Below, one piece after another: positions 9,757 through 63,223 of a stretch of DNA of 64,000 nt. The DNA lies in contig CAWKDB010000010.1 of NCBI GenBank assembly GCA_963848295.1, forward strand, positions 1,888,001 to 1,952,000, written 5' to 3'. A program made the position numbers and the translations under genes. The notes below the pieces were generated by a model, which made no database searches, was not told where the DNA came from, and saw only the letters and a program-made list of their open reading frames with translations. The DNA comes from an uncultured delta proteobacterium. GTDB taxonomy: Bacteria > Myxococcota_A > Polyangia > Haliangiales > Haliangiaceae. Every line of letters starts with the position of its first letter. The stretch's first letter is position 1.

Positions 9757-10563
9757 GTGCTGATCGACTGGTACACCGTCGGCGCGCAGGCGCTCAACTT
9801 CGTCATCCTCGTGTGGTTGATGAAGCACTTCCTGTACAAGCCCGTGCTCCGCGCCATCGACACGCGCGAGAAGCTGATCGCCACCGAGCTCGCAGATGCC
9901 GCCGCGAAGGAGGCCGAGGCCCATAAGGAGCGTGACGAATTCCAGCACAAGAACGAGGAGCTCGACCGGCAGCGCGTGGCGCTGTTGAAGAAGGCGTCCG
10001 ACGATGCCAACGCGGAACGCCACCGGCTTCTCGACCATGCCCGCCGGGCAGCCGACGCGCTGAGAGCGAAGCAACAGGCCGCGCTGCGGGACGACGCCAG
10101 GAGCCTCCAAGAAGCCATCCAGCGCCGGACGCAGCACGAGGTCTTTGCCATCGCACGAAAGGCGCTGACAGATCTCGCCGCGACGGGTCTCGAGGAACGG
10201 TTCGCCGCCGTATTCACTCGCCGGTTGCGAGAGCTGGACGGCGCGACGAAAACCGATCTCGCCAAGGGCATCAAGGCGGCGTCCGACTCCGCGCTCGTTC
10301 GCAGCGCGTTCGAGCTGCCCGCCGATCAGCGCGCGGTGATCCAGAACGCGCTCAACGAGACGTTCTCCGCCGATATCCATGTCCGGTTCGAGACCGCGCC
10401 GGATCTCGTCAGCGGGATCGAGCTCGCCACGAATGGCCAGAAAGTCGGCTGGACCATCGCCGAGTACCTTGGTTCGCTCGAACGGGGCGTGGACGAGCTC
10501 TTGAAGGAGAACGCGAAGACCGAGATCAAAGCCGAGCCCACGCCGGAAGCCAAGAGCGAATGA
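9757..10563 (+). CDS. atpF: ATPase b subunit (b/delta-like fusion typical of N-ATPases)
   Basis: [28 protein letters not shown]; coiled coil; C-terminal DLVSGIEL...GWTI. Confidence 0.92.
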
Positions 10564-11781
10564 ACAGCACGCCTGACAGCTTGCAGAGCGTCTTCGACCG
10601 CGCGTTCGCCGAGATCGCGGAGGTGCGCCACGCCTTCACGCCGCAGCTGACGCCACGCGAGGTGGGCAGGATCACCAGCATCGCAACCGGGATCGCGAAG
10701 GTCTCCGGCCTTCCCGGCGTGGGCTTCGAGGAGCTCGTGAAGTTTTCCGGCGGCGTGTTCGGGATCGCGTTCAACGTGGACGAGGACGAGATCGGCGTCG
10801 TCCTGCTTGGCGACTACTGGCATCTACACGCCGGCGACGAGGTCGAGCGCACCGGCCGGGTCATGGACGTGGCCGTCGGCAATGGCTTGGTGGGACGCGT
10901 CATCGACCCGCTCGGTCGGCCACTCGATGGCAAGGGACCGGTGGTTTCCAGCAAGCGCCTGCCGATCGAACGCCCGGCGGCCCACATCATGGATCGCGCG
11001 CCGGTCACGGTGCCGCTTCAGAGCGGCTTGAAGGTCATCGACGCCCTTATTCCGATCGGGCGCGGCCAGCGCGAGCTGATCCTGGGTGACCGGCAGACGG
11101 GCAAGACTGCCATCGCGATCGACACGATTCTGAACCAGCGTGGCCGGGACGTCGCGTGCGTTTACTGCGCCATTGGTCAGCGCGCTGCCGCCGTGGCGAA
11201 AGTCGTGGCGATGCTGCGGGAGAAGGGCGCGATGGATTACACGGTCGTGGTCGTGACCGAGGGCAACGACCCGCCGGGTCTCGCATACATCGCTCCATAC
11301 GCCGCGACGAGCATCGCGGAGCATTTCATGGAAGCGGGACGCGACGTGCTGATCGTCTACGACGACCTCACGCAGCACGCCCGGGCGTACCGCGAGCTCT
11401 CCCTCCTGCTCCGCCGTCCACCGGGGCGCGAGGCGTTCCCCGGCGACATCTTCTACATCCACTCGCGCCTGCTCGAACGCGCCACTTGTCTCTGTCCGGA
11501 GCTCGGTGGTGGCTCGCTGACCGCGCTGCCGATCATCGAGACCGAAGCGCAGAACATCTCCGCGTACATTCCGACCAACCTGATCTCCATCACGGACGGG
11601 CAGATCTACCTGTCACCCTCGCTGTTCGAGCTTGGAGTCCTGCCCGCGGTCGATGTCGCCAAGTCCGTCTCGCGCGTCGGCGGCAAGGCACAGCGAGCGG
11701 CGTACCGCGCCGTCGCGGGCGACCTAAAGCTCGCCTACGCGCAGTTCGAGGAGCTCGAGACGTTCGCGCGGTTCGGCGCCC
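10560..11781 (+). pseudogene. atpA: ATPase alpha subunit, 5' fragment (interrupted by IS)
   Basis: [27 protein letters not shown]; similarity stops at [12 protein letters not shown] where the IS begins. Confidence 0.95.
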
Positions 11782-14075
11782 AGACTTCGGGACGCTGATC
11801 TCATTGGAGTTGGGTTTCGAAGCGTAGGGGAAGGCGCTTGTGATCACTCGGCAGGATCAGGCCGCGCTGGGTAAGATGACCGAGCAGATGATGAATCGCG
11901 TCGAGCTCGGATCGATTGGCTGCGGGCGCGAGGCGGACGATGATGGCGTGTTCGGTGATTGCCACCTTTGCCGGCGCGGCGAACAGGTTCGCGACGAGCT
12001 TCTTCGCCTCTCGGGGCCGGCTCATGTGCGGTGCGGCGATCGCGGCCAGCTCGGACTCGGCGTTGGCGCAGACGACGCGGATGACGTCGATGACAGTCTT
12101 GAGCTTGCCCGTGTGGCGGACGAGCTTGCCGGCGAGCTCGGTCTCTTCGACGGCGGCGTGCTTCGGAAACAGCGGGCGGAGCGCCTCGAGCTGCCGCTGC
12201 CATTCGAGCGACTCTGCGAGCTCGCGTTCGACACGCTCGCGTCGCTTGTCGTCCGCGGCCAGCCGCGCCAGCTCGCGGCGTGCGTCGCCCTCGGCGGTGC
12301 GCCAGACCCGCAGCGCGCGCTCGAGCTTTCGACGTGCCGGGTTCGGGATGATCGTCCCGGGTGGATACGGTTCGACGCGCCGGCCGTCGAGCTGGTTGAT
12401 GCCCCAGCGCTCGACCCCGTGCTTGAAGCCGTTCTCCTGGCGCCAGCGGAGCCACAGGATCTCGACGAGCCGCTCCGCGGGCAGCTTCGAGGCGGCGAGC
12501 AAGCTCACCTGTCGACCATCTTCGGTGCAGACCATGATGCGACGAAGGCGCCCGCGACCCTCGCCGAGATTTCGCAATCGGCTCTCGTGCAGCCCGACCT
12601 GTTCGCCCGCGATCGTCGCCGCTGTAAACGCCGTCGCCGGCAGCTCGGCGTAGGGCTTTCGCTCGTACGTGACGAAGTCGAAGTGGGCCTCGCGCAGCGC
12701 CGCGAGTTGCGCGGCAAACGCACCACCGCGATCGAAGGCGAGCAGGATCGTCTCGTCGGGGCCGAGCGCTTTGCGCAGGCGCTGGCCCAGGGGCAGCAGC
12801 CACTCGGTCAGGTGATCGTGCGACGGCACCGGCACGCGAAACATCGGCCGGCCGTCCTCGTCGTGGACGTAGTAGTCGGTCGTCCCGGGCAGCACGCGCT
12901 TGGCCTGCATCCGCCAGCCCTTTCGCACGACATGCTTGCCCGTATACGGCCGTAGATGGTTGTCGACGTAGAAGATCGCCGGGGCGCCGTCGCTCGCTGC
13001 GGTTGCGATCAGCCGCTCGGCCATCCGTGCCTCCAGCGCGGCGCCGGCGTCGGTCTGTGCGAGCAATCGACCGAGGATCTTGCGGACCCCGCTGGCCGTG
13101 GGCACGCGCTCGGCGCGCAGCAGCGTCGCGCCGGTCGGTGTCGCGAGTCGGCGCACACCCTCGACGACGAATTGCTTGAGCGCGAGCGCACAGATCACCG
13201 CGTCGAGCGCGATCCGCAGCCCATCGGGATGCCGGCCCTCGAACGCGCGCTGCGCCTCTTCGTGCAGCCCCATCTCGCCGGCAAGCGCGAGCAAGATCCA
13301 GCAGCCGGCGTGCTGCACGAGCTTTCCGCCGCGGACCGGCTGCGCCGTCATCGGCACCTGATCCTTGTCGTCGAATTCGTCGGCCGTGACCGGATCGTCG
13401 CCGAGGTCGACATCGCGATCCGGTCCGGCGATCAGCAGTGCGAGCTGCCCGGCGATCGCGGTCGGCGCGGCCTGCCGTGCCGCCTCGACAGGGCTCCCGG
13501 CGGCGCGCTCACGACGCCAGTCGTCCCAAACGCGCCACACCGTCGAATACACGAGGCGCTGTTTGCGCGGCTGTTCGCGGTGCGCGTCGATCGGCATTCG
13601 CCCCGCGTCGAACATCGCGTACCAAACAGTTCGCAACTCCCGCGTTACCTTCGTAACTCCTCCGCGTCGCGGTCCCAGCACCGCAGCAAACCCCGCGGCT
13701 TCTTCCTTCCGCCGCAGGCGCCGCAAATGTTCGTCCGTGATCCCGAATGCTGTTGCCAGTCGCCCGAGGTGGAACTGATCGGTTTTCGCGAGCGTCACTG
13801 CCAGTACGTTGCGAGGGCCGCGGTCATCGTCGTCCAGATCGAACCCGCCGATCAGCGTCCCGCCGATGTACACGCTCGCGATCGTGTCCCGGACGATCAC
13901 CACCCCGTCCGACGAGAAACGCCGGATTTCGTGGGCGGGCTTTGGCGACGGCTCAGGCAAGGCGAGGTCGAGAGCTTCCATCGTTGCCAAGACAACCGCC
14001 AGCGATCCGAAATTCCCACAATCCATCGATCTAATCGAATTCTCGTAAACCTGCGTCATTCGATCAGTTCAAAAT
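11782..14075 (-). mobile_element. Insertion sequence (about 2.3 kb) inside atpA
   Basis: Flanked by the direct repeat GGCGCCC (11775-11781 and 14076-14082). Removing the element plus one copy restores in-frame ...FARFGARVDEDTRKS... Confidence 0.92.
11801..14059 (-). CDS. Large DDE transposase (IS4-superfamily-like); start may be ATG 13981
   Basis: N-terminal HTH-like LATAFGITDEHLRRLRR; FYVDNH...FDRGG...RWRQENGFK catalytic-triad pattern; fills the element. Confidence 0.85.
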   Translation of the reverse strand: MTQVYENSIRSMDCGNFGSLAVVLATMEALDLALPEPSPKPAHEIRRFSSDGVVIVRDTIASVYIGGTLIGGFDLDDDDRGPRNVLAVTLAKTDQFHLGRLATAFGITDEHLRRLRRKEEAAGFAAVLGPRRGGVTKVTRELRTVWYAMFDAGRMPIDAHREQPRKQRLVYSTVWRVWDDWRRERAAGSPVEAARQAAPTAIAGQLALLIAGPDRDVDLGDDPVTADEFDDKDQVPMTAQPVRGGKLVQHAGCWILLALAGEMGLHEEAQRAFEGRHPDGLRIALDAVICALALKQFVVEGVRRLATPTGATLLRAERVPTASGVRKILGRLLAQTDAGAALEARMAERLIATAASDGAPAIFYVDNHLRPYTGKHVVRKGWRMQAKRVLPGTTDYYVHDEDGRPMFRVPVPSHDHLTEWLLPLGQRLRKALGPDETILLAFDRGGAFAAQLAALREAHFDFVTYERKPYAELPATAFTAATIAGEQVGLHESRLRNLGEGRGRLRRIMVCTEDGRQVSLLAASKLPAERLVEILWLRWRQENGFKHGVERWGINQLDGRRVEPYPPGTIIPNPARRKLERALRVWRTAEGDARRELARLAADDKRRERVERELAESLEWQRQLEALRPLFPKHAAVEETELAGKLVRHTGKLKTVIDVIRVVCANAESELAAIAAPHMSRPREAKKLVANLFAAPAKVAITEHAIIVRLAPAANRSELDAIHHLLGHLTQRGLILPSDHKRLPLRFETQLQ

Positions 14076-14492
14076 GGCGCCCGCGTGGATGAGGACACCC
14101 GCAAGAGCATCGACCACGGACGGCGAATTCGCGCTTGCCTCGAGCAGCCCGAATTCGATCCGGTGTCCGTGCCCGCGCAGATCGCGATCCTGCTCGCGCT
14201 GACCGCGAAGCTCTTCGATCCGGTGCCGCTCGACCAAATGACCGCCGCCGAGCAGGCCGTGCGTGAGGCGGCGGCGGGCATCCCGGCGGAGGTGAGCGCT
14301 GGATTCGAAACGGCCTCAGCCTTGAGCGCCGAGGATCGCAAGTCGATCGTCGAGCTCGCCCGCCGAGCGCTCGCGCCGTTCTATCCGAAGCCTGAGGCCG
14401 CGCCGAAGCTCGAAGTCAAGGCTGGGCCGAAGCTCGAAACCGAGCCGAAGCCGAAGGTCTCGGCGGAGGCGGCACCTGTGGAGAAGTCATGA
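14076..14492 (+). pseudogene. atpA: ATPase alpha subunit, 3' fragment
   Basis: VDEDTRKSIDHGRRIRACLEQPEFDPVSVPAQIAIL is the alpha C-terminal domain; stop overlaps the atpG start. Confidence 0.93.
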
Positions 14493-32069: not shown

Positions 32070-33306
32070 TGTCGGTGGCGTACCGCCCGACGTCCAAAAA
32101 AAAGTAGCAAGCTTGTTGGGGGAGACGCTGGCGGAGCCGACGGCGGAAGACTTCGCGCGCGGCCCGGAGACCTCCGCCCGGAGGCGCCGGTGATGCAGGG
32201 GCTCGTGTCTCTGATCCCGATCGTCGGCATCATCGCCGCGTGTCTTGCGCTCGGTGTGAACCGCGCGAGCTACTACCGCGCGCAGAAGCCGAAGGCACCG
32301 GCGCAGCGGCGGCCACGGCCGGCTCGCGCACTCGGAGAGGACGAGCGCGCCCACGTGCTCGCCGTGCTCGACAGCGATCCGTTCATGGACAAGGCGCCTG
32401 CGCAGGTCTACGCGAAGCTGCTCGAAGACGGCGAGTACCTGTGCTCGACGCGCACGATGTACCGCGTTCTCGATGACGCCAGCCAGGTGCGTGAACGCCG
32501 CGCGCAGCGCCGGCACCCCGAGTACGTCAAGCCCCAGCTCGTCGCGACCGCACCGAACCAGGTGTGGACGTGGGACACGACCAAGCTGCCTGGCCCGGTG
32601 AAGGGCACGTACTACACGCTGTACGTCATCCTCGACCTGTTCAGCCGCTACGTCGTCGGCTGGCAGATCGCCAAGAGCGAGTCGGCGAAGATCGCGCAGC
32701 GCCTCATCGCGGCGTGCTGCGAACAGCAGCGGGTGGTGCGCGGTCAGCTGACGGTACACGCGGACCGCGGCTCGCCGATGATCGCGAAATCGACCGCGCA
32801 GCTCTACGTCGATCTCGGCATCGCGCAGAGCCACAGCAGGCCGCACGTCTCGAACGACAACCCGTACTCCGAGGCGGGCTTCAAGACCATCAAGTACCGA
32901 CCGGAGATGCCCGAGCGCTTCGGTTCCATCGAGCACGCGCGTGCTGTGATGGCTCCGCTCCTCGGCTGGTACAACACGGCGCACTACCACACCGGCCTCG
33001 CGCTGCTCACGCCGGCCGATGTCCACCATGGTCGCGCGCCCGCCATCGTCGCCGCGCGGCAGCTCGTGCTCGACGCCGCGCACCTCCGTCACCCCGAGCG
33101 CTTCGTGAACGGCCGACCGATCCAGAAGTCGCCGCCACCCGCCGCGTGGATCAACCCGCCGCCAATGGATCAGATCGGGAGCGCGGATCGGATCACGGAT
33201 CGGATCGCGATCACGGATCTGATCACATCCGCGGATCGGATCGAGGAGGTCGCTGCTCACAAAATACGTGCGAGCGCCGTCTCAAAGTCGTTGACACGCA
33301 CCGACA
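32070..33306 (+). mobile_element. IS3-family element with most of orfA deleted
   Basis: Left end TGTCGGTGGCGT matches the right end read in reverse complement, TGTCGGTGCGT. The orfA tail DVQKKVASLLG carries an A8G slippery site at 32096-32104. No target duplication seen. Confidence 0.75.
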
Positions 33307-33335
33307 CGAAGATCCGGACGGGCTCGCACACGTAG
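32190..33335 (+). CDS. IS3-family transposase OrfB (rve integrase core)
   Basis: PNQVWTWDTT, LDLFSRYVVGW, HADRG, SRPHVSNDNPYSEAGFKT; the ORF reads through the right end. Confidence 0.92.
   Translation: MMQGLVSLIPIVGIIAACLALGVNRASYYRAQKPKAPAQRRPRPARALGEDERAHVLAVLDSDPFMDKAPAQVYAKLLEDGEYLCSTRTMYRVLDDASQVRERRAQRRHPEYVKPQLVATAPNQVWTWDTTKLPGPVKGTYYTLYVILDLFSRYVVGWQIAKSESAKIAQRLIAACCEQQRVVRGQLTVHADRGSPMIAKSTAQLYVDLGIAQSHSRPHVSNDNPYSEAGFKTIKYRPEMPERFGSIEHARAVMAPLLGWYNTAHYHTGLALLTPADVHHGRAPAIVAARQLVLDAAHLRHPERFVNGRPIQKSPPPAAWINPPPMDQIGSADRITDRIAITDLITSADRIEEVAAHKIRASAVSKSLTRTDTKIRTGSHT
33168..33242. repeat. GATC-dense short tandem repeat tract
   Basis: 11 GATC sites in 75 bp (GGATC/GATCAC/GATCG units). 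Confidence 0.75.
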
Positions 33336-33491
33336 TGTCGCATACCGGTTGTACCAAGCCAGTAACAGCGTGGTTCGCACGCACGCACGAGCTCGAGTCC
33401 GCGTTGGTGAGCTCGAGTTGACCGATCGCGTGATGCAATCTCGCACACCCGATGTCGGGAGCGAGCGGTAGCGACGCGTGCCGTCGTCGAT

Positions 33492-34775
33492 CTGAGATAT
33501 CCCCTCAGATCAGCCCGAACACAGCGCGGAAAATTTCCTGCTGCCGAACGATGTGGTCGAACGATTTCATGAGCGGCGCGAGCTTCTCGTCTCCCATGTA
33601 CGGAATGGCCTCGTAGAGGTGAATGCCTTGGTTGAGGAGCGACATGGTGCGCTTCTTCGAGGTGTTGGTTTTCATCAGCCGATCGAGTCCGCACGCCTCG
33701 CCGGCGGCGCCGAGCAACGTCAGCAACGCCTGTGCGACTGCCGCCAGAAGCAGCAAGCGGTCCCGGCGATCCGTGGTGCCGATGTGCGTCGCCGATAGCC
33801 CCATGCCGAAGCGAAAGTTCTTCTGGTCGCGAAACGTTTCTTCGATCGTGAACCGTCGGCCGTACAGCTTCACGATCTCTGCGGCCTTGAGCTCGCTCAG
33901 CGTCGTCGCTAGGCACCACGCCTCCTTCATCCTCTTGGCGTGCATGACGACAACCGCCGGCACTTCGGCGCGCGTGCGCGTGACTCGAGCCCCGCGCAGG
34001 ATCAGGGCGCGACCGTTGTCTGGCACCCACGCGTTCGCCGTCTTCCGAGTTCCCGTTGCGTCCTCGACCTGAATCGCTCCTCGAAAGCGGATAACGAAAT
34101 CCCAGCCGAGCGTCTGCAGGAACCGATACAGCTTCTGATCGCCGAAGCCGCGATCCGCCAGCACTGTGATCTTCACGTCGGGCGCGACGCAGTCGTGCAG
34201 CCGTTCGAGCAACCGATACTCGTGGTCATTCCGCTTGTTCTTGAGCGTGGTCTTGCTCACCGTCATCCAGATCAACGGGGTCGCCCGCCCATGGCTGGTG
34301 ATCAGGTAGCCCGCCAGCGTCGCGTGGTCGTCGCCATCGAACTCTGTCCAGTCGAGCGCGACGACGATCTCCTTGCGCTCTGCGACGACAAACTGGGCCC
34401 ACGGTCGGAACAACGTCCACACGTCGATGCCCGGGTTTCCGAGCAAACGATCGGTCTGCTTCACCCCGTGCTTCTTGTCGTTGTTGGTGACGCGCGCGTA
34501 TCCACGACCGATCGCGTGGATCGACAGCACCGCTGCGTCGACGGTGCCCACGACACCGTTCGCCAACGACAGCACGCGCATCGCATGCAGATCATCACCG
34601 AAGATTTGGTGCACCGTCTTCGCGACTTCCAGCGGGTCTCGAACAAACTCTGTCATCGATCGACGGCTCATCATGCCGCTCGAACCGACGCGCGAGCTCC
34701 GAAATTCCGCCTCAGCTGGGAAAAATCCGGAGCGCTTTCGATCACCTACGCCGCCAAAGCGAGGGGATCCATCAG
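33492..34775 (-). mobile_element. Intact IS4-family insertion sequence (1284 bp)
   Basis: Imperfect IRs CTGAGATATCCCCTC / CTGATGGATCCCCTC; 9-bp target duplication GTCGTCGAT (33483-33491 and 34776-34784). Confidence 0.93.
33505..34674 (-). CDS. IS4-family transposase
   Basis: ALDWT, LADRGFG, YGRRFTIEETFRDQK (YREK signature). Confidence 0.94.
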   Translation of the reverse strand: MMSRRSMTEFVRDPLEVAKTVHQIFGDDLHAMRVLSLANGVVGTVDAAVLSIHAIGRGYARVTNNDKKHGVKQTDRLLGNPGIDVWTLFRPWAQFVVAERKEIVVALDWTEFDGDDHATLAGYLITSHGRATPLIWMTVSKTTLKNKRNDHEYRLLERLHDCVAPDVKITVLADRGFGDQKLYRFLQTLGWDFVIRFRGAIQVEDATGTRKTANAWVPDNGRALILRGARVTRTRAEVPAVVVMHAKRMKEAWCLATTLSELKAAEIVKLYGRRFTIEETFRDQKNFRFGMGLSATHIGTTDRRDRLLLLAAVAQALLTLLGAAGEACGLDRLMKTNTSKKRTMSLLNQGIHLYEAIPYMGDEKLAPLMKSFDHIVRQQEIFRAVFGLI

Positions 34776-52969: not shown

Positions 52970-54946
52970 ATGAGCGTACCGATCTTACTGGTCACGATGC
53001 CTTGGGGGTCGGTCCGATTCCCGTCGATCCAGCTCGGGACACTCAAGTCGGTACTGCAGCGCGGAGGTCTCGAGGCGCGAGTGCTGTACTTGAATCTCAA
53101 GTTCGCCGAGTTCATCTCCGAACAAGGAGCGAAGGCGGCGAGCACATCGGACGAGGACCGGATCTCGATCAAAGAGCTGCTCCAGCTTGGGGACAACCCG
53201 AGGTTAGGTGACTGGGTCTTTGCGGTCCCGCCGTTCCGCCCAACCAACGATGACGCCGATCGGGACTTCCTCACGCCGCGCGGTGTCCGCGAGCCGGCGG
53301 TCGAAAGGGTCGTCGCGAGCCTCACACGTCTGCGTGCTCTGGCTCCGGCGTTTCTGACTGACTGTCTAGAAGAGATCATCGCGCTGGAACCTCGCGTCAT
53401 CGGGTTTACGACCAGCTTCGGTCAGAACGTCGCGTCGCTCGCATTGGCGCAACTGATCAAAGAACGCTTGCCTGCGACGAGGATCGTGTTCGGTGGGGCG
53501 AACTGCGATGGGCCGATGGGCGTGGCGCTCCACCACAGCTTCCCGTGGGTCGATGTCGTCGTGCGCGGCGAAGCGGAGCGCGTGGTGGTTCCGTTGTTCG
53601 AAGATCTGCTGGCGGGCCGTCCGGTGCGAGATCTGCCCGGCATGTGTCGGCGCGATGAGGGCGTGAGCATCGTCACGCCACAGAGCCACGATCTGGTCAG
53701 CATGGCCGAAGTTCCCGCGCCCGACTACGAGGAGTACTTCGAGGCGCTCGCGGCGAGTCCGCTCCGACACGATCTGCTGAGCGACGTGCGCATCCTCTAC
53801 GAGAGCGCGCGCGGATGTTGGTGGGGCGAGAAGAACCACTGCACGTTCTGCGGGCTCAACGGCTCGTCGATGAAGTTCCGCAGCAAGAGTGCCGACCAGA
53901 CGTATCGAGAGATGGTCGAGCTCGGCCGCCGGCACACAAACCTCCATTTTCAGGTGGTCGACAACATCATCGAGCTGCGCTACCTGGAGGAGCTCCTGCC
54001 TCGGCTACGCGATACCGAGTGGGATTGGAATGTGTTTTACGAAACCAAGGCCAACCTCAAGCGCGATCAGCTGCGCCTGTTTCGCGAAGCGGGAGTTCGC
54101 GACATTCAACCCGGCATCGAGAGCCTGAGCACTCCGATTCTCAGGTTGATGAACAAGGGCGTTACCGCGCTCCAGAACATTCGGCTGTTGAAATGGTGCG
54201 CCGAGCTCGGGATCCACATCGAGTGGAACCTCATCTTTGGCTTCCCCGGGGAAGATCCCGCGGAATACGAAGCGATGGCCGCGCTGATCCCGTCGTTGGT
54301 TCACTTGACTGCGCCCACAGTGACGCCGCTCAACGTCGAACGGTTCAGCCCGTATCACGAGCACCCCGAGCGCTACGGTATCGAGATCCTCGGCGCGGCG
54401 AGACACTACGCGCTCCTCTACCCGCTCCCCGCGGTGCAACTCGCCGAGCTCGCATACGCCTTCGAGTTCCGCTATCTCGATGGCCGCGATCCCCACGCGT
54501 ATGCCGATCCGCTGGTGAGCCAAGTCAACGCGTGGCGGGAAGCGGCCGCGGACGGAACCTTGGCGTACGATGTCGGGCCCGGTTTCGTGGTCATCGATGA
54601 CCATCGCCCGACGGTGGAGTCGGCGCGCTACACGTTTCACGAGCGCGAAGCGCTGATCTATCTGGCGTGCGACGCCGGTGCGACGCCGGCGCAGGTGCAC
54701 GACCTCCTCACGAAGCGCGGCGAACACGAGCTCACGCCAGGAGACATCGCAGAGTTCCTCGACAGCTTGGTCGAGCTCCGTCTGGTCTACCGCGAGCGCG
54801 GCAAGTACCTCTCCCTCGCGACCGCGCGTGACCAGCACCGGGCGCTCAGGCGACTCGGCATCACCGACCTCGACGACGAGCACGATCGCGACGAAGCTGC
54901 AGCGGCAGCTGGTTTGATCCAGCTCAAGCGCGCTGCGAGCCAGTAG
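52970..54946 (+). CDS. B12-dependent radical SAM RiPP C-methyltransferase (rSAM_ocin_1/TIGR03975-like)
   Basis: LVTMPW...PSIQLGTLK; cobalamin domain GFTTSFGQN...FGGANC...GEAE; ESARGCWWGEKNHCTFCGLN (CX7CX2C); VDNI, YETKANL, QPGIESLS; C-terminal wHTH/RRE-like region. Confidence 0.92.
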   Translation: MSVPILLVTMPWGSVRFPSIQLGTLKSVLQRGGLEARVLYLNLKFAEFISEQGAKAASTSDEDRISIKELLQLGDNPRLGDWVFAVPPFRPTNDDADRDFLTPRGVREPAVERVVASLTRLRALAPAFLTDCLEEIIALEPRVIGFTTSFGQNVASLALAQLIKERLPATRIVFGGANCDGPMGVALHHSFPWVDVVVRGEAERVVVPLFEDLLAGRPVRDLPGMCRRDEGVSIVTPQSHDLVSMAEVPAPDYEEYFEALAASPLRHDLLSDVRILYESARGCWWGEKNHCTFCGLNGSSMKFRSKSADQTYREMVELGRRHTNLHFQVVDNIIELRYLEELLPRLRDTEWDWNVFYETKANLKRDQLRLFREAGVRDIQPGIESLSTPILRLMNKGVTALQNIRLLKWCAELGIHIEWNLIFGFPGEDPAEYEAMAALIPSLVHLTAPTVTPLNVERFSPYHEHPERYGIEILGAARHYALLYPLPAVQLAELAYAFEFRYLDGRDPHAYADPLVSQVNAWREAAADGTLAYDVGPGFVVIDDHRPTVESARYTFHEREALIYLACDAGATPAQVHDLLTKRGEHELTPGDIAEFLDSLVELRLVYRERGKYLSLATARDQHRALRRLGITDLDDEHDRDEAAAAAGLIQLKRAASQ

Positions 54947-54988: not shown

Positions 54989-57900
54989 TTGGGACTCGTG
55001 CGATCGACGTGCGCTATGCCCGGGCGGCGTCCACGGATTCCGTACCGGTGCGCCGTTCGGGTATCGTTGGTCGTGGGCAGCGATACGCGAACCGGATCGG
55101 GTGTTCCGACCGGCGTGCCGGCGAGCTTCGCATCGAGTGCGACCCCCGGTCAGTTGACCGGTCGGGAGCTCGGCGGCTTCACGTTGCGCGAAGTGATCGG
55201 CGCGGGCGGCTACGGCGACGTGTATCTCGCCGTGCAGGAGGCGTTGCATCGCGACGCGATCGTGAAGGTGCTGCGCCAAGAGGCGATGGACGAGATGCGA
55301 GTGCAGCGGTTCCTGCGCGAAGCGCGGCTCGCCTCGCGACTCGACCATCCGTATGCGGCGCACATCTATGCGTTTGGCGCTGAAGACGACGGCGTGTTCT
55401 GGATCGCGATGGAGCACGTGCGCGGGGCGTCACTCCGTGCCGTCCTCGAAGCGCAAGGCCCGATGGTCCTCGAGAGATTCGTGCCGCTGCTCGAACGGAT
55501 CTGCGAGGTCGTCCAGACCGCACACGAGCAAGGGATCATTCACCGCGACCTCAAGCCAGACAACATCATGGTGATCTCGCGGGCGGGGAAGCTCATGCCC
55601 AAGCTGCTCGATTTCGGGATCGCGCGGGCGCTGGGCGAGGAGGCGACGTTGCCGAATGAAGCGGCGAGCGCGGAGGACCTTGCGCGTCCCGTCGAAAAGA
55701 CGACGCAGCGCGGATCCGTGTTGGGATCGCCCCCGTACATGGCGCCGGAGGTGTGGAGGGATGCGCACGGCGTCGGACCTGGCGCGGACCAGTACGCACT
55801 CGGCGCGCTCGCCTACGAGGCCCTGAGTGGCCGGATCGCGTTCGATGGCAGGACCGTGATGGAGGTCGCGCGCGCGCACGCCAAGGGTGTGGTCGCGCCG
55901 CTCGGCGACGGATTTCCTGTCGAGCTCGATAGCGTGATCAGTCGTTCGCTCGCTCGTTCGCCTGCGAATCGGTATGGGAACATGCTCGAGCTTGCTCAGG
56001 CGTTCCGCGACGCCGCCGGGGTCAACGCCGCAGCGGTCGACATCCCCGAGCTCGACCAAGAGCTGCGGGCGCTGTACCTGGCGCGGGCGCCGCAGCCACT
56101 TGCGGACGCGGTCGCAGGCTACGACGCAGCGAAAAATGCGCACCAGGCTCGCGAGTCGTTGCGCGCACTGGTCCGGACCTCCGCGACCTATGTGGGAATC
56201 GTCGCGCTTGCCTGCCGGACACGCGTTGGCAGCGGAGGAGTGGTCGATTCGGAGCATACGCAAACGCTCCTGCGCGAGCTCCGCCGCGACGGACTGACAT
56301 CGAGTGGATGGATCGGGCTCGCCCGCCAGCTGACCGAGCCGTTCGCGCGTCTTCCCGACACGCATCCGATGCCGGAGCTGGTGACCCTGCTGCAGCGCGC
56401 ACGTGGAGTCGATCCGTTCGCCTCGGTGGTCGAGGGCTCGCTGTCGGAGTCGCTGGTCGATCCGTCGCAGGAAGCGGCGAGCCAAGCGATCGCGCGCGAG
56501 CTCCCCAGCGTGATCGGCCTGCTCCGTGCACTCGCGTTCGTCCTCGACTACCAGCTCGTCGTCGCACGCGATGGCTATGCGGAGTCCTGGGCCGGCGCGC
56601 GCGGTGCAGGCGCCCGCCGGCGCGTCCTGCTCGGCCGAGTGGTCTCGCAGGACCATCCAGTGCTCGTGGACAGCGACGGGCACCCACTCGTCTCGCTGTG
56701 GCCGCTGATGCAGCTGAGCATGGCGGTGCCCGGACGTACGGAAGAGCTCTTCATGTTGGCGGGACCGGGCCGACGCGGTGCCCGGCTCGTTTCGAGCCCC
56801 CACGGGTTCGAGCACAGCGATGATGGGCTGTGGGATTGGTTCCGCGAGCAGCTGTTCCGCGCCGAGGATCCGGAGGCGAACGCGACGGCCGTGGAGTCGC
56901 CATACCGCGGGCTGGCGGCATACCGCGCGAGCGACGCGGCGTGGTTCTTCGGTCGCGAGCGCGAGGTCGAGGTCGTGATCAATCGTCTCAAGGTCGAGGC
57001 GTTCGTCGCGGTGGTGGGACCGTCGGGTGTCGGCAAGAGCTCGTTCGTCCACGCCGGCGTCGCGTCTGCCCTGGCGGGCTTTCGAGTGGTGACGACCCGG
57101 CCCCAGCATGCGCCCCTCGAGCAACTCGGAGCAGCGCTCGGCATCCCCAACTTACGCGAGGCGGCGACCGCCGATGTCACCACGGCCGCAGCGCAAATCC
57201 GCGCGCTGGCAACCGAGTCGAACGGCCTGCTCGTCGTGATCGATCAGTTCGAGGAGACGCTCACTCTCGGTAGCTCGCCGGAAGAGCGCGATCTGTTTGC
57301 ACGGGTCCTGCTCGCCGCGACTCGCACGCCAGACCATCCGGTCCGCGTCGTGATCACGTTGCGCGACGACTTCTTAATACGCGCGGAACAGCTGCCCGGC
57401 TTCGACCAGGCGCTCGCCAGAGGACTCCAGCTCCTCGGACCACTGGGCGCGGCCGCACTCGAGCGTGTCGTCGTCGAGCCGGCACGTCGCGCGGGCTTCG
57501 AGTTCGAGGATGCGAACCTGCCGGCGAGGATGGTCGAGGCTGTCGCAGGTACTCCTGCCGCCGTTGCGCTGATCTCGTTCACCGCCACGCGACTGTGGGA
57601 GTTGCGCGATCGTCACTTCCATCAACTGCCAAGGAAAGCCTACGAGGCGATCGGGGGCGTGGCCGGTGCCCTCGCGCTGCACGCCGACGAAACGGTCGAA
57701 GCGATGCCTGCGGGCGAGCGTGCGCTGGTGCGCAAAGCCTTCCGCCATCTGGTGACGTTCGAAGGTACCCGCGCCGTGCTCGGCCGCGATGAGTTGATGC
57801 AGCTGCTCGGCGGCCGGGGGGACGCGGAGAAAGCGCTCGAGGGACTGATCGAGGCCCGGCTCTTGGTGTCGTCGGAGAACGAGGAAGGCGAGGCAGCGGT

Positions 57901-60418
57901 CGAGATCATTCACGAGACGCTGCTCACGGCGTGGCCGCGGCTGGCCGAGTGGCGACGAGAAGATAGCGAAGGCTCGCGGTTCCACGAACAGCTGCGCGCC
58001 GCCGCCAAGCAATGGCACGATCGCGGCCGCCCGCGCGGGGCACTGTGGCGCGGGGACGCCCTCGCCGAATACGAGCTGTGGCGCAAGCGCCACCCCGATA
58101 ACCTCACACCGGTCGAGGCCGCGTTCGGCGGGGCGAGCGTCGCGAGTGAAGCACGGGGGCGCCGGCTCCGTAGGTTGTCGGCAGCGATCGCTCTGGTCAT
58201 CGCCGCGGTGTTCGTCGCGTTCCTCTGGCGCGCAAACCGGATCGAGCATCGGATGCTGCGCGAAGCGACCTTCGATCAGGGCCGGATGATGATGCTCAAC
58301 GGCGATAGCCGCGCCGCGCTGCCCTATCTGCAGCATGCGTACGAACAAGGCGAGACCGGCCCGGCGAATCGCTTGCTGATCGAGGAGGCTCTTCGATCGG
58401 GACGCGCACGCATCGCGACCTTTGCCGGGCACACCGGCCGACTGCGGGCGGTTGCGTTCAGTCCCGATGGTACGGAGGTCGGGACGGCGAGCGACGACGG
58501 TACCGCCCGGGTCTGGAACAGCAAGACCGGGGCCCTGATCGATACGATCGCTCTGTCGGGCGTCGTCCGAGCGCTCGCGTTCAGTCCCGATGGCAAGATC
58601 GTCGCCTGCGGAGGCGACGAAGCAGCAGTCCACCTTTGGGACCTCGAGCAACACCGCGAGCTCGCCCCGCTCGCGGGAGCCGGGCCGGCGGTTCTCCAAC
58701 TGTCGTTCAGCGGCGACGGCCATCTCATCCTGGTCGTCGGCGCCGGCCGAATCAAGACGATGTCGCTAATCGGAGGCGCGGTCGTCGATTTCGGCCCAGT
58801 GGAGGGTTTTGCCGGCGCGGTCTTTGCGAACCACGACGCGACCATCGCGGGCTGGGATTCTGCCGGACACGTCGGGCTGTGGGACACGCGCTCGCGGCAG
58901 CCGATCGCTAGCCACGTTGCCGCGGTCGGTGATGGTGTAGGCGCCGCCGCCCCCGACGGATCCTTCGTTGCAGTGGCGACAAAGACCGGGCAGCTCGACG
59001 TGCTCCGTGCCGACGGAACCATCACCGCGATCACCGCGCACGATCAGACCATCATCTCGGTGGCGGTTTCGCCTTCAGGTTCGCTCGTAGCAACCGGCAG
59101 CGCGGATGGCACCGCCAAGACCTGGGACCTCGCGGGCCGGCCAGCTCGCGTCTTCGGTTGGGGAGGTGGTCCCGCGATCAACGTCGTGCGATTCTCACCG
59201 AACGGCGAATTGCTGTTGACGGCCTGCGCAGACGGCTCCGCGCGGCTCTGGCAGGTGCGGAGCGGGCTTTTGCTCGGCGAGCTGTCCGGCCATTCCACCG
59301 CGATCTTTGCCGCGGCGTTTTCTACGACAGGCGATCGTATCGTCACCGGCTCGCTCGATTCGCGCGCGATCGCGTGGGATGTCGCGAAGGCCCGCGAGTT
59401 TGTGTCGCTCCCGATCGGAGGGGTCACCTCGATCGCGTTTGTTTCACAGACGGCGTTCAGCCGAGATGGGCGGTTCGTCGCCGTGGCAACCGCCGATCGA
59501 TCGCTCGCGGTCCTACGGTCGGTGGACGGAGCCCTCGTGTGCAGCCACGCGTTCGACAAGCCGATCGATCAGATCGCGTGGGGGCCAGATGGCGCGACCA
59601 TCGTGACGGTGTTCGACTCGGACCTGATCATTCCCGTCTGGGATGCGCGCACTTGTACGGTCGTGCATCAGTTGAGACATCCTCGGCCCGCCTCGTGTGT
59701 CGCGTTTGCTCCGAACGGGGAGATCGTCAGCGGCTCCGATGACGGCATCCTCCGGCGCTGGGACATCGCCGGCGAACGCGTAGTGGCGAGTTACCCTCCC
59801 CTTCCCGGTCGAATCGACCTCGTCGGCTTCGATCCCGCCGAAGCGCAGATCTGGGCGACAACATCGAGCGAAACAGGCGGTGCCCTCACCCTCTTGGATC
59901 CCGCTCACCCGGTCAACCGACGGGTGCTCGCGGCGTCGAATCAATCGCTCTCCGCGGTAACGTTCGATCCAGCACACCATCGCATCCTCGCGTCGGCGCT
60001 CGATCAGCGCGTGTGGATCTGGGATGATCGCAGCGGGGCGTTGATCACCAAGCTCGACGCGAGCGGGGTTCTGGCGGGACTAGAGATGAGCCCGGATGGA
60101 CGTTTCCTCGTGGGCATCGGCGGGACCTCGCCCACGGTCTGGGATCCGGACACGCTGGCCGAGCTAGGCACTCTCGACGGTCACACCGATGTCGTCGGCC
60201 AGGGTGGCTTCCTACCGGGCGATCTGCTCGTGACCGCAAGCCGCGACGGTAGCGTCCGGGTCTGGGACCTAGCGACCCGGCGCTCGCTCTTGATACTGCA
60301 CGGCGCAGACGAGATGGCGCTCAGCCCCCAAGGTGCCGTGATCCTTGCCGACGGAGCAGGCGTGCGGGAGTGGTTTCCGAGCATGCCCACACCGGAGCTC
60401 GGTACGATGATGAAGTGA
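54989..60418 (+). CDS. Ser/Thr kinase - STAND (nSTAND1-like) NTPase - TM - WD40 repeat protein (start uncertain, maybe about 55115)
   Basis: GAGGYG, HRDLKPDN, DFG, YMAPE; PYRGL...FFGRE, GPSGVGKSS, IDQFEE; TM helix; many GH...WD repeats. Confidence 0.92.
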   Translation: MGLVRSTCAMPGRRPRIPYRCAVRVSLVVGSDTRTGSGVPTGVPASFASSATPGQLTGRELGGFTLREVIGAGGYGDVYLAVQEALHRDAIVKVLRQEAMDEMRVQRFLREARLASRLDHPYAAHIYAFGAEDDGVFWIAMEHVRGASLRAVLEAQGPMVLERFVPLLERICEVVQTAHEQGIIHRDLKPDNIMVISRAGKLMPKLLDFGIARALGEEATLPNEAASAEDLARPVEKTTQRGSVLGSPPYMAPEVWRDAHGVGPGADQYALGALAYEALSGRIAFDGRTVMEVARAHAKGVVAPLGDGFPVELDSVISRSLARSPANRYGNMLELAQAFRDAAGVNAAAVDIPELDQELRALYLARAPQPLADAVAGYDAAKNAHQARESLRALVRTSATYVGIVALACRTRVGSGGVVDSEHTQTLLRELRRDGLTSSGWIGLARQLTEPFARLPDTHPMPELVTLLQRARGVDPFASVVEGSLSESLVDPSQEAASQAIARELPSVIGLLRALAFVLDYQLVVARDGYAESWAGARGAGARRRVLLGRVVSQDHPVLVDSDGHPLVSLWPLMQLSMAVPGRTEELFMLAGPGRRGARLVSSPHGFEHSDDGLWDWFREQLFRAEDPEANATAVESPYRGLAAYRASDAAWFFGREREVEVVINRLKVEAFVAVVGPSGVGKSSFVHAGVASALAGFRVVTTRPQHAPLEQLGAALGIPNLREAATADVTTAAAQIRALATESNGLLVVIDQFEETLTLGSSPEERDLFARVLLAATRTPDHPVRVVITLRDDFLIRAEQLPGFDQALARGLQLLGPLGAAALERVVVEPARRAGFEFEDANLPARMVEAVAGTPAAVALISFTATRLWELRDRHFHQLPRKAYEAIGGVAGALALHADETVEAMPAGERALVRKAFRHLVTFEGTRAVLGRDELMQLLGGRGDAEKALEGLIEARLLVSSENEEGEAAVEIIHETLLTAWPRLAEWRREDSEGSRFHEQLRAAAKQWHDRGRPRGALWRGDALAEYELWRKRHPDNLTPVEAAFGGASVASEARGRRLRRLSAAIALVIAAVFVAFLWRANRIEHRMLREATFDQGRMMMLNGDSRAALPYLQHAYEQGETGPANRLLIEEALRSGRARIATFAGHTGRLRAVAFSPDGTEVGTASDDGTARVWNSKTGALIDTIALSGVVRALAFSPDGKIVACGGDEAAVHLWDLEQHRELAPLAGAGPAVLQLSFSGDGHLILVVGAGRIKTMSLIGGAVVDFGPVEGFAGAVFANHDATIAGWDSAGHVGLWDTRSRQPIASHVAAVGDGVGAAAPDGSFVAVATKTGQLDVLRADGTITAITAHDQTIISVAVSPSGSLVATGSADGTAKTWDLAGRPARVFGWGGGPAINVVRFSPNGELLLTACADGSARLWQVRSGLLLGELSGHSTAIFAAAFSTTGDRIVTGSLDSRAIAWDVAKAREFVSLPIGGVTSIAFVSQTAFSRDGRFVAVATADRSLAVLRSVDGALVCSHAFDKPIDQIAWGPDGATIVTVFDSDLIIPVWDARTCTVVHQLRHPRPASCVAFAPNGEIVSGSDDGILRRWDIAGERVVASYPPLPGRIDLVGFDPAEAQIWATTSSETGGALTLLDPAHPVNRRVLAASNQSLSAVTFDPAHHRILASALDQRVWIWDDRSGALITKLDASGVLAGLEMSPDGRFLVGIGGTSPTVWDPDTLAELGTLDGHTDVVGQGGFLPGDLLVTASRDGSVRVWDLATRRSLLILHGADEMALSPQGAVILADGAGVREWFPSMPTPELGTMMK

Positions 60419-60463
60419 ATCATCCCCCGATCTCATACATGTATAATATCATTACGTTTTCCA

Positions 60464-60492
60464 TTGAGATCGACACCGCGTCCGGGTACTTT
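60464..60492 (+). promoter_or_regulatory. sigma70-like promoter of the precursor peptide
   Basis: TTGAGA-N17-TACTTT ending 7 nt before ATG 60500, in an AT-rich gap; an alternative TATAAT at 60442-60447. Confidence 0.5.
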
Positions 60493-60499
60493 GGTAACC

Positions 60500-60640
60500 A
60501 TGAACAAGACCAAGAAGCCCACCAAGAAACAGGCGAAGCTTCAGGTTCTAAAAGTCGCGGTTCGGAGCCTCAGCGTGAAAGAGCTCAAGGACGCGGTGGG
60601 CGGAATCGCCGTCCACAATGCTGGGTGCGCGTTCACCTAG
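60500..60640 (+). CDS. Putative RiPP precursor peptide (46 aa, double-glycine leader)
   Basis: MNKTKKPTKKQAKLQVLKVAVRSLSVKELKDAVGG-IAVHNAGCAFT*; below the ORF-track size cut-off. Confidence 0.85.
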   Translation: MNKTKKPTKKQAKLQVLKVAVRSLSVKELKDAVGGIAVHNAGCAFT

Positions 60641-61758
60641 CCGAGTCGTCGGAACGAGAAGGCGGCCCAGCGGAACGTCCCCATCCAGGCGCGCGCGTTG
60701 CTTTTTGCGAAGCGCCTCTCCAGAGCGCGCCACATGCGCGCCGGATCCTCCCAGCCGGGTGAGGCCGCCGCTTTCAAGTGTTCCTGAGAAAGGAACGCTT
60801 TCGCGAACGGGATGCCGATCGACCGGCGCTCGTCGAGCTCGCAGCTCGCGAGATGTCGGACCGGGCACCCGAGCGCCGTCAGCCGCGTCTCGAGAGAGCG
60901 CGCGTGAGCCGCGGCGTCGAGACGCCCGCGCGTATTCAGCAACCGCGCCAGCGGATGTCGCCTCGGCACCGTGAGCCATCCGTCGATGATGACGAGATAG
61001 CCGCCCTGCTCGAGGACGGAGTAGATCCCTCGTGCCGCGCGCCCCGGGTCGAGCCAGTGGAGGGCGAGCGAGATCGTGACGACGTCGTAGTGCTCGGTGT
61101 GAAATGGCAGCCGGTTGCAGTTGTCATGCAGATAACGCACGCGCACACCACGCTGTGCCGCGTCCCCCGCAGCGATCCTCAGGAATGGCTCGGAGACGTC
61201 CATCCCCGTAACGTGAGACGAGATCTCTGCTAGCTGATTTGCCAAGGCTCCAGTTCCGGTCGCGAGATCGAGGACTCGCGTTGGTTTTCGGATCCTGGCC
61301 GCGCGAGCAACCCAACGCGCGATCGCGGGCGGAATCGTCCGGTGCTCGCGATAGTCGTCGGCCATGTCCGCCCCGTACATCGCGCGAGCATCGCCGACTC
61401 GAACGAGGATCTGGTGGCGCTCGAGCCCGCTCACCAGCTGATATGCGATCCGCTGGTGCTCGGCCGTGCGCGCGAGCCCGTTGACGCGAAGAAATGCAGC
61501 GATCGCCTCGCGGACAGATGTCCCGGTTCCGCTGAAGCAGCCGAGCAGCACGCGATGGGGTTCGGTCAGATTCACCGCGCGGTTGTACGGATGCGTGAGC
61601 GACGTGACGTATGGCTTGCCGTCGAAGTCGACTTCGAGCGCGAAGTGCGGCGATGGTTTGAGTACATCGTCGAACGCGGCATCTTTGCCCATTGAAGCGA
61701 TCCTACGTGACCCCGCGGACTTGATCGACGGCTCGGCGTGAACGTGGGGCTTCCTCAT
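60637..61758 (-). CDS. Class I SAM-dependent methyltransferase with RRE/wHTH-like N-terminal domain (start 61758 or 61692)
   Basis: VLDLATGTG, GMDVSEPFL, YDVVTISLALHW; N-terminal beta-strand plus helix module ending LVSGLERHQILV. Confidence 0.85.
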   Translation of the reverse strand: MRKPHVHAEPSIKSAGSRRIASMGKDAAFDDVLKPSPHFALEVDFDGKPYVTSLTHPYNRAVNLTEPHRVLLGCFSGTGTSVREAIAAFLRVNGLARTAEHQRIAYQLVSGLERHQILVRVGDARAMYGADMADDYREHRTIPPAIARWVARAARIRKPTRVLDLATGTGALANQLAEISSHVTGMDVSEPFLRIAAGDAAQRGVRVRYLHDNCNRLPFHTEHYDVVTISLALHWLDPGRAARGIYSVLEQGGYLVIIDGWLTVPRRHPLARLLNTRGRLDAAAHARSLETRLTALGCPVRHLASCELDERRSIGIPFAKAFLSQEHLKAAASPGWEDPARMWRALERRFAKSNARAWMGTFRWAAFSFRRLG

Positions 61759-61777: not shown

Positions 61778-63223
61778 GTGACCCATAGTGCGAAACGTAG
61801 ACTCGCAGGCAAACGCGATCTGATCGTGATCGGCGCCGGGCCAGTGGGCTTGGCGGCACTCTGGTACGCGCATCGTTACAGCATCGACGCGATCGCGCTC
61901 GACGCCGGGCAAGCATCACTAGATTCGATTCGCTCGTTCGGCCCTGGGCTTGTCACGGTCTCGACCGCGCATGAATGGGAGATCGATGGGCTCCCGGTCG
62001 ATTGCCGCGCCCCGACCGAAGTCACGCGCGAGGACCTCCTGAGCTACTACTCTCGGATCGGCGCCTACGGCCGACTCGAGGTCGCATGTCGACAGCGCGT
62101 TACGGCGCTCACTGCGCGCCCCGACGCGGTGAGGGTCGAGGTCGAAACGCAAGACGGGCCAGCGTATTGGCTTGCACGCCGAGTGATCGTGACGCCATGG
62201 TTCCGTCGGCGCCGAGTCGCACTCGAGGGGCCCGGTGTGAGCGTCGTCGAGGCCGCGACCGACGCGATATCCGCCAGTGAGCGCGTGGTCGTGATCGGGG
62301 CTGGAATGTCGGGGCTCGAGACGTGCGATCATCTGCTCAGACGTGGCGTACGCGTCACGTTGCTCGACAAGCGCCGACAGGTGTTGCCTCCCGAGCTCCA
62401 GACTCTGTTCAAGGTATCGGGCTCTCGCTACGTCGATAACGTCGGATCGATCGCTGTTGCGAAATCCGGTGTGCTTGCGGTCTCGCAAAAGGGTCTGGCG
62501 ATCCAGGTTCCGTGCACGGTCGCGGTGAATTGCACGGGGCTGGAGGTCAATCGCGATCTGCTTCGAGCTCTTTTCGGCGCCGAGCTAATGTCTGAAACGG
62601 AGGCGCGCGCACTCGAACGCTTTCGGCCGCACCGATCGAGCTATCGCACGGACCCCCGAGCCATCGCGGCGCAGTTGCCGGCGTTGTCCGACGCGATCTG
62701 GCGCGGACGACGTGGCGTGCACTTCGCCGGGACCGTATTTCACGTCGGCGGTCCGCTCGGCGCAGGTATCAAGTGGTCGATCGAGACTGCTCGATGGGCG
62801 CTGGACGCGATCGCCGGGAAGTCGAAGGTCACCGTGGACCCCTCGATCCACCTGCCGACGTGGTTTCTCACCCTCGCCAATACGTCGCCTCTCGTGCATC
62901 GTGGACTCCGCTGGTCGAAGCACTTGGGGGCGATCGTGCCGACCCCGATTCCGACCTGGTCTCGGGGCACGAAGTTGTTCGAGGGTGAGACGCCGACGGG
63001 TGGGACGCTTGGAGCGCCGTCGCACGACACGCGTGCCCATGGCGTCGCCCGCCGCAGGGTGTTGACCGATCTCCGCGACGCTTGCTACTCGGGCCGATCG
63101 GTCGCCGCGCTCGTTGCAACTCTCGGTATCGATCGCGAAGTGATCCTCAGCGCGTTGGGCGCGTTGTGGACCGGAAATGGCCTGACGTGGGTACCGCCCG
63201 GAGCGACGCGACCGCGCGGTTGA
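61778..63223 (+). CDS. FAD/NAD(P)H-dependent oxidoreductase (YpdA/TrxB-like) with C-terminal wHTH-like extension
   Basis: VIGAGPVG and VIGAGMSG Rossmann motifs; STAHEWEIDGLP...TREDLLSYY resembles the YpdA N-terminus. Confidence 0.8.
   Translation: MTHSAKRRLAGKRDLIVIGAGPVGLAALWYAHRYSIDAIALDAGQASLDSIRSFGPGLVTVSTAHEWEIDGLPVDCRAPTEVTREDLLSYYSRIGAYGRLEVACRQRVTALTARPDAVRVEVETQDGPAYWLARRVIVTPWFRRRRVALEGPGVSVVEAATDAISASERVVVIGAGMSGLETCDHLLRRGVRVTLLDKRRQVLPPELQTLFKVSGSRYVDNVGSIAVAKSGVLAVSQKGLAIQVPCTVAVNCTGLEVNRDLLRALFGAELMSETEARALERFRPHRSSYRTDPRAIAAQLPALSDAIWRGRRGVHFAGTVFHVGGPLGAGIKWSIETARWALDAIAGKSKVTVDPSIHLPTWFLTLANTSPLVHRGLRWSKHLGAIVPTPIPTWSRGTKLFEGETPTGGTLGAPSHDTRAHGVARRRVLTDLRDACYSGRSVAALVATLGIDREVILSALGALWTGNGLTWVPPGATRPRG

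Follow-up and report, generated by a model that had tools for sequence, protein, structure and literature searches.

A precursor gene with a double-glycine leader

Near the end of the window, by which we mean the whole stretch of 64,000 nucleotides analysed here, lies a short gene for what looks like a RiPP precursor, and the question raised by this locus is what such a peptide is made for at a place where neither lanthipeptide enzymes nor an exporter are encoded. An earlier note had described it as an unannotated precursor with a lanthipeptide-like leader. Its reading frame (60500..60640, plus strand, ATG to TAG, 46 aa) was reproduced exactly, with codon usage typical of the genome (log-odds +11, GC3 0.78); "unannotated" holds for the name of the product only, as the exact protein is already a called gene in the protein collection. 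The peptide begins with a Lys-rich leader of 35 aa (60500..60604), one of 11 paralogous leaders in the genome, and the stretch after the two glycines is the predicted 11-aa core, IAVHNAGCAFT (60605..60637), which has one Cys and a C-terminal Thr, as had been pointed out, and no Ser. Likewise, the double-glycine signal LSxxELxxxxGG is exact (L24-S25-x-x-E28-L29-x4-G34-G35). L[ST]xxELxxxxGG is the consensus of double-glycine leaders, and of the genome's 33,910 short ORFs starting with ATG just 2 have the LSxxELxxxxGG pattern, both belonging to this leader family. The second motif, previously given as LxLxKx5L, has the first Leu, the Lys and the last Leu in place (L14-x-V16-x-K18-x5-L24) and Val instead of the second Leu, the actual motif being LxVxKx5L; the NCBIfam profile lant_leader_L1a (NF038153) scored the leader at 11.1 bits, below its cut-off of 22, and Pfam had no match in the precursor.

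The division into leader, double glycine and core was supported by an orthologue, P0010, of 83% identity, equal length (46 residues) and shared C-terminus, in which 30 of the 35 leader residues and 8 of the 11 core residues are kept (I-A-V-H-x-x-G-C-x-F-T), Cys8 and Thr11 among them. P0010 was the sole match when a HMMER profile built from the two-peptide alignment was run against 1.84 billion representatives. Truncation of a longer core, the 31-aa one encoded at 730 kb of contig C2, was considered as the origin of the 11-mer and rejected, because P0010 has the same length and end and because DNA similarity to the C2:730 kb precursor drops off past the common N-x-G-C-A stretch. Three soil or root DNA runs contained short pieces at 99%+ identity, with zero differences listed in the covered peptide region; RNA datasets containing the window stretch were not listed. 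An AT-rich spacer of 81 bp (60419..60499, plus strand) separates the precursor from a kinase gene upstream and holds a TATAAT hexamer at 60442-60447, with neither a -35 box nor a sigma-54 (-24/-12) box. Promoter and terminator calling at the precursor returned no sigma-70 site and no matching terminator, and a clear ribosome-binding site is absent before the ORF.

Tailoring enzymes adjoin the precursor

The absence of lanthipeptide machinery was correctly seen in that LanB and LanC lie outside the window; the absence of maturation enzymes that this implied did not hold, as a TIGR03975 enzyme and a methyltransferase with an RRE-like domain adjoin the precursor. The former is a B12-dependent radical-SAM RiPP C-methyltransferase (52970..54946, plus strand; the longest ORF begins at 52772), which scores 624.7 bits against a TIGR03975 cut-off of 281.85, carries a Cx7Cx2C motif that reads CWWGEKNHCTFC in translation, gives a weak B12-binding match and ends 5.5 kb upstream of the precursor. 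PoyC-type enzymes, in the account given in PMC5682303, have a Cx7Cx2C motif and methylate Val at C-beta; the core here opens with Ile-Ala-Val. Among 91 genomes of the genus there were 21 TIGR03975 matches. A leader-family precursor was present beside every one of the three closest homologues (60, 51 and 49%; 3/3), and such a precursor was found for none of 17 homologues at 32-41% in the fetched stretches, some of them short contigs (0/17). This genomic association makes it likely that the enzyme C-methylates the leader-family precursor here.

On the other side, convergent with the precursor and overlapping it at the stop codons (CTAG), is the gene for a class I SAM methyltransferase (60637..61692, minus strand; Pfam Methyltransf_25), with an orthologue of 79% identity. 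Its residues about 2-100 form a putative RRE/PqqD-like domain. In the structure model, three strands and three helices of the first 100 residues make up a PqqD-like winged helix, the model being poor past residue 100. Foldseek matched this domain to PqqD with a probability of 1.0 and a TM of 0.66, but at a weak E of 0.027, and also to TbiB1, a lasso-peptide RRE. VIA-align placed TigE (Z 8.4), MibB (8.1) and TbiB1 (7.8) among its matches, the RRE proteins ranging from 7.5 to 8.4, behind a top match to Rv2067c (Z 8.7), a protein methyltransferase outside RiPP biosynthesis. In the ESM Atlas the domain reached 0.79-0.81 to the MftB/PqqD type, and the C-terminus of a neighbouring flavoprotein reached 0.81 to MftB/PqqD, all below 0.9. 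When the three candidate RRE domains were compared with one another by profile, no similarity emerged (probabilities of 5% or less), so that the RRE status of the radical-SAM C-terminus and of the flavoprotein C-terminus is a lead only. One distant methyltransferase homologue (33%) adjoins an ABC-transporter ATPase fragment.

The flavoprotein, a likely member of the peptide cassette, is an FAD/NAD(P)H oxidoreductase resembling YpdA, extended at the C-terminus by an additional winged-helix-like domain (61778..63223, plus strand; NCBIfam and Pfam matches, 78% orthologue), encoded divergently from the methyltransferase. The orthologues of the peptide, the methyltransferase, the flavoprotein and the upstream hydrolase are each on a contig of 541,393 bases, equated by equal size alone, which implies that the cassette is conserved. 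A search of 90 congeners for the methyltransferase and the flavoprotein gave no match to either at the thresholds used (0/90), and a scan of the genome contigs for DNA of the orthologous cassette (P0002, P0010, P0012) was empty. The core would seem to suit methylation rather than lanthionine rings. With good confidence we regard the gene as a genuine RiPP precursor that its neighbours serve.

The upstream gene encodes a receptor-like kinase

Besides the tailoring enzymes, the earlier note had missed the partner that is the defining feature of the locus, a receptor-like Ser/Thr kinase-STAND-TM-WD40 protein (54989..60418, plus strand; Pfam Pkinase, nSTAND1 at 1e-98, WD40). The gene has 1,809 codons, with an uncertain start codon, and ends 81 bp before the precursor ATG. 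In its product a Ser/Thr kinase is followed by a helical middle domain of ~280 aa, an nSTAND1 NTPase, one TM helix and a WD40 region of ~730 aa, with HRD, DFG, Walker A and Walker B all intact. The TM helix (about 58172-58228) is Arg-rich on its N-side, and the same holds for all receptors examined (25/25), each of which has one such helix and 566-786 residues beyond it. By the positive-inside rule, the WD40 part is predicted to face outward (N-in, C-out) in every one of the 25. The cytoplasmic part is conserved and the outer part divergent (mean normalised similarity of 0.55 vs 0.15). A scan of viral contigs with the receptor middle and STAND part gave no match. Complex prediction for the WD40 region with precursor residues 17-46, that is, part of the leader plus the core, returned a score of 0.01 and a mark of 0.32, values that speak neither for nor against a complex.

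Precursors and receptor kinases are paired in the genome and its relatives

A search for sibling precursors, which the earlier note had proposed, was carried out in the genome (7.78 Mb, 85% complete) with a leader profile and ahead of any look at neighbours, and it collected 11 precursors. For seven of these, a kinase-STAND-WD40 gene is no more than about 500 bp away. Seen from the kinases, all loci with the kinase-middle-STAND-TM-WD40 order (7/7) have a GG-leader peptide, as against 0/7 of the other strong nSTAND1 loci (Fisher p 0.0006); four of the seven receptor genes are split across frames in the assembly. A close receptor homologue occurs in 21 of 41 genomes, the source genome (G000) counted. 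From 17 genomes we fetched 40 loci, corresponding to 41 of the 48 listed matches outside G000 (G010 and six short or cut places were left out). These relatives were chosen by similarity to the window receptor and are kin, hence not independent; a precursor was present at 23 of the 40 loci, within 500 bp at 22, one weak non-GG match in L080 having been dropped from the count. The 17 loci without a precursor comprised (i) five cut inside the receptor, (ii) eight with a non-WD40 C-terminus, (iii) one of another STAND clade, and (iv) three true misses, two of which are loci cut upstream.

A quick IQ-TREE analysis was made of 46 STAND domains from the genome and its relatives; the five cut loci were excluded, as were L016 and L068, two frames that lack Walker A, and L051b was scored as having no peptide despite its following a paired receptor. 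It resolved a clade of 31 rows (SH-aLRT 93), 28 of them with a peptide, as against 0/15 outside. All family cores differ from one another. The paralogue at C2:730 kb ranks as the nearest to the window locus for STAND, WD40, leader and core alike, and shares N-x-G-C-A in its core. Over 26 pairs, with STAND similarity removed, core similarity was not related to WD40 similarity (partial Mantel r -0.001, p 0.49), in a test that has little power because the cores are short and saturated.

Two other groups of kinases were seen alongside these. Loci L077-L084 form a sister clade of kinase-middle-STAND proteins on short branches, about one per genome, with a C-terminal region of ~700 aa without a Pfam match and no peptide gene. 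At L010 (G000 C1:20.7-25.7 kb), a Cys/Thr-rich precursor sits between LanC and a non-STAND Ser/Thr kinase, together with an ECF-like sigma factor (a label read from sequence); this is a second type of kinase-peptide pairing.

Promoters, export and lanthipeptide genes across the family

For 30 loci, 175 neighbouring genes had been called, and 93 of these were annotated with Pfam. FHA-type sigma-54 activators were seen next to 14 of the 30 loci, against an estimated chance adjacency of about 6-7% for 63 sigma-54 activators in 7.78 Mb. A -24/-12 box, the consensus of sigma-54 promoters, was found 20-70 bases before 20 of 39 precursors, where 1.1 were expected. The window precursor has neither this box nor an adjacent sigma-54 activator, and its output would consequently be in trans. 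FHA-domain activators are known in Myxococcus, as the title of a reference in PMC4320627 indicates. Other enzymes at the 30 loci were LanC-like proteins (9), LanB (3) and PCAT (2), and further neighbours included glycosyltransferases, a decarboxylase-family flavoprotein, a metallo-beta-lactamase-fold protein and a JmjC protein.

That the window encodes no C39 transporter, and that export would have to be encoded elsewhere, agrees with the whole-genome search for PCAT and LanB/LanC recommended in the earlier note, which found one PCAT, a LanB and three LanC matches, all outside the window. The genome's single PF03412 match is the PCAT at C2:792 kb, which has the catalytic Cys/His motifs of C39 (DCGPACL and HFVV) and adjoins HlyD, an outer-membrane efflux (OEP) gene and LanB, the latter at C2:786 kb. 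All three LanC matches lie beside other precursors and none at the window locus. PCAT or HlyD genes also adjoin the family loci L060, L062 and L069, and the 11 precursors of the genome likely share its single PCAT exporter.

The HlyD-type adaptor beside the PCAT (L009:12274-14232) has a long N-terminal extension and its L062 homologue carries a GAF domain, which suggests regulated export. Three paralogous long-core precursors without a STAND receptor (C10:2866493, C10:2999764 and C10:2562936) have KKLSL...GGAG leaders and Thr/Arg/Cys-rich cores; one of them is beside LanC, so that the other two are likely matured in trans.

A candidate peptide signal and its alternatives

The interpretation to which we lean, with a little less than even confidence, is that a methylated, trans-exported peptide is the signal for the neighbouring receptor kinase. 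The leader would dock on the RRE-like domains; the TIGR03975 enzyme would, by analogy with PoyC, C-methylate an aliphatic core residue, Val3 or Ile1; the class I methyltransferase would add a further methyl, for which His4, Cys8 and the C-terminus are candidates; and the flavoprotein might conceivably act on the Cys8 thiol. The C2 PCAT would cut after Gly35, and the 11-mer would leave through HlyD and the outer-membrane efflux protein. Binding of the peptide to the WD40 propellers would lead to a putative STAND ATPase oligomer and an active kinase, and in the family as a whole the output would likely run through FHA-domain sigma-54 activators to the peptide promoters. Since export through HlyD and an outer-membrane channel bypasses the periplasm, the peptide would have to come back into the cell envelope before a sensor in the inner membrane could meet it; the family cores span 8 to 46 aa, and peptides of such sizes are mostly too big for general porins. 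What the locus likely represents is a peptide-signalling system that has yet to be described, not an orphan lantibiotic. Somewhat more tentatively, we propose that Kofleriaceae and related myxobacteria possess a bank of private peptide-hormone channels, each made of a GG-leader RiPP with a chemistry particular to it, at the window locus radical-SAM and SAM methylation of an 11-mer, and of a dedicated single-pass Ser/Thr receptor kinase, whose STAND domain would be an NLR-type switch relaying ligand binding by the outer WD40 propeller to FHA-sigma-54 activators. If so, bacteria would have in these channels an equivalent of the peptide/receptor-like-kinase signalling of plants, with possible uses in kin recognition or multicellular coordination.

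Adjacency alone would fit equally well with a sensor that controls production of the peptide. It is quite possible, though we think it less probable than a signal, that the kinase-STAND-WD40 protein senses prey, a competitor, phage or envelope damage, and that the methylated, exported peptide is a bacteriocin or effector that hits other cells rather than a ligand. The adjacency data would be identical, antibiotic-type RiPP enzymes do occur in the family (LanC-like at 9/30 and LanB at 3/30 loci), the export genes cross the envelope, core and sensor showed no co-variation, and nSTAND1 was defined in counter-invader systems, according to the description in PMC8195603. Yet one peptide per sensor, with an outer domain that is always different, goes beyond what co-regulation needs, given that one sensor could drive many peptides just as one PCAT serves 11 precursors. 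Furthermore, no obvious immunity gene was noticed at the locus, and typical membrane-active bacteriocins differ from a weakly charged core of 11 aa. More remote from the signal is the lanthipeptide framing of the earlier note, in which the precursor would be matured in trans by the LanB at C2:786 kb and a LanC into a class I lanthipeptide with a Cys8-Thr11 methyllanthionine. The leader does resemble the LxLxKx5L/GG leaders of that class in the account of PMC7268733, the genome has the LanB and the three LanC matches, cores typical of lanthipeptides and neighbouring LanC genes are seen for sister precursors, and both Cys8 and Thr11 are retained in P0010. We consider it quite improbable nonetheless: the leader stays below the NF038153 cut-off, the core has no Ser and its sole Thr is the last residue, the three LanC matches are all at loci of other precursors, and the window locus, devoid of LanB and LanC, has methylating enzymes of its own.

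A real leader-family gene could also have become a decayed or silent remnant, its expression or maturation lost, or its neighbours could be unrelated passengers. The absence of a sigma-54 box and of a clear ribosome-binding site would be in keeping with this, as would the frameshifts of several sister receptor genes in the assembly and a core slightly less conserved than the leader (8/11 vs 30/35). P0010, by comparison, has the same length and C-terminus, the peptide is as well conserved as the neighbouring enzymes (83% against their 78-79%), and the receptor, the radical-SAM enzyme and the methyltransferase are intact with their catalytic motifs, all of which makes decay improbable. An intracellular role had been allowed for in the earlier note; unexported, the peptide might act, for instance, on the kinase or the STAND domain. 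STAND proteins are usually cytoplasmic sensors, and the exporter is away from the locus; against these points stand the exact double-glycine motif, the PCAT or HlyD genes that adjoin L060, L062 and L069, and the variable domain predicted on the far side of the membrane, and we regard such a role as very improbable. Even if the peptide were an effector, it would represent a new, non-lanthionine, methylated type of RiPP, missed by cluster-finding based on LanB/LanC or on proximity to C39. If it is a signal, the pairing provides named candidate ligands for a large family of myxobacterial receptor-like Ser/Thr kinases, and the window locus is among the easiest to test, with a synthesisable 11-mer, three small co-expressible tailoring enzymes and an intact receptor.

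Comparison with known systems

ComC/ComAB/ComD/ComE and BlpC/BlpH/BlpR are Gram-positive pheromone circuits built on double-glycine peptides. They share with the loci described here a GG-leader peptide, a C39 ABC exporter, an adjacent membrane kinase with a variable sensor and, likely, transcriptional feedback. The differences are that a Ser/Thr kinase-nSTAND1-WD40 protein takes the place of a histidine kinase with its response regulator, that the host is a two-membraned myxobacterium with many paralogous pairs per genome, and that the peptide likely carries radical-SAM methylations, its role as a ligand being a prediction here. Class I lanthipeptides, as presented in Walker et al. 2020 (PMC7268733) and NF038153, have in common with our precursor the nearly identical LxLxKx5L motif and the GG end, and LanB, LanC and a C39 transporter are encoded in the genome. 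They differ from it in the second Leu, replaced here by Val in a leader below the cut-off, in the LanB/LanC genes, which the locus lacks, and in the core, here without Ser, with a terminal Thr and with methyltransferases in place of a cyclase. Proteusin leaders are nitrile-hydratase-like, unlike the short, Lys-rich leader of 35 aa found here, and the 11-aa core, the receptor kinase partner and the lack of any epimerase seen at the locus are further differences. The resemblance to the proteusin/bottromycin enzymes PoyB/PoyC, so far as these are described in PMC5682303, lies in the TIGR03975 score above cut-off, the Cx7Cx2C motif and the presence of Val and Ile in the core.

An nSTAND1 module with an N-terminal kinase effector also occurs in the counter-invader systems of Kaur et al. 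2021 (PMC8195603). In the receptors studied here the repeat domain is instead placed beyond a TM helix and tied to a peptide gene, a peptide partner not being named in the account in PMC8195603. The open literature searched contained no description of a kinase-STAND-WD40 protein paired with a peptide, though supplementary lists of Walker 2020 and Kaur 2021 may include loci of this kind, and none of a STAND ATPase as a transmembrane relay for modified peptides, which is how it would act if the signalling interpretation is true.

Additional observations

At loci L051 and L053 a peptide gene is accompanied by a truncated LanC-like gene and by one for a family 28 glycosyltransferase, and the products are possible glycosylated RiPPs. 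Arrays of four and five TIGR03975 methyltransferases in 10-25 kb were seen at L113-L114 (G105:C1) and L120-L121 (G005:C13); a leader-family precursor was not found at these arrays, which are unexplored RiPP clusters. The window itself is rich in mobile elements. A transposase gene with a match to Pfam Transposase_29 (11801-14059, minus strand) cuts in two the ATP synthase alpha gene of an F-type (N-ATPase-like) operon at 10560-14489, where the C-terminal domain of alpha resumes at about 14085. Two more transposase genes, one with an rve integrase core and one of DDE_Tnp_1, lie at 32190-34674.
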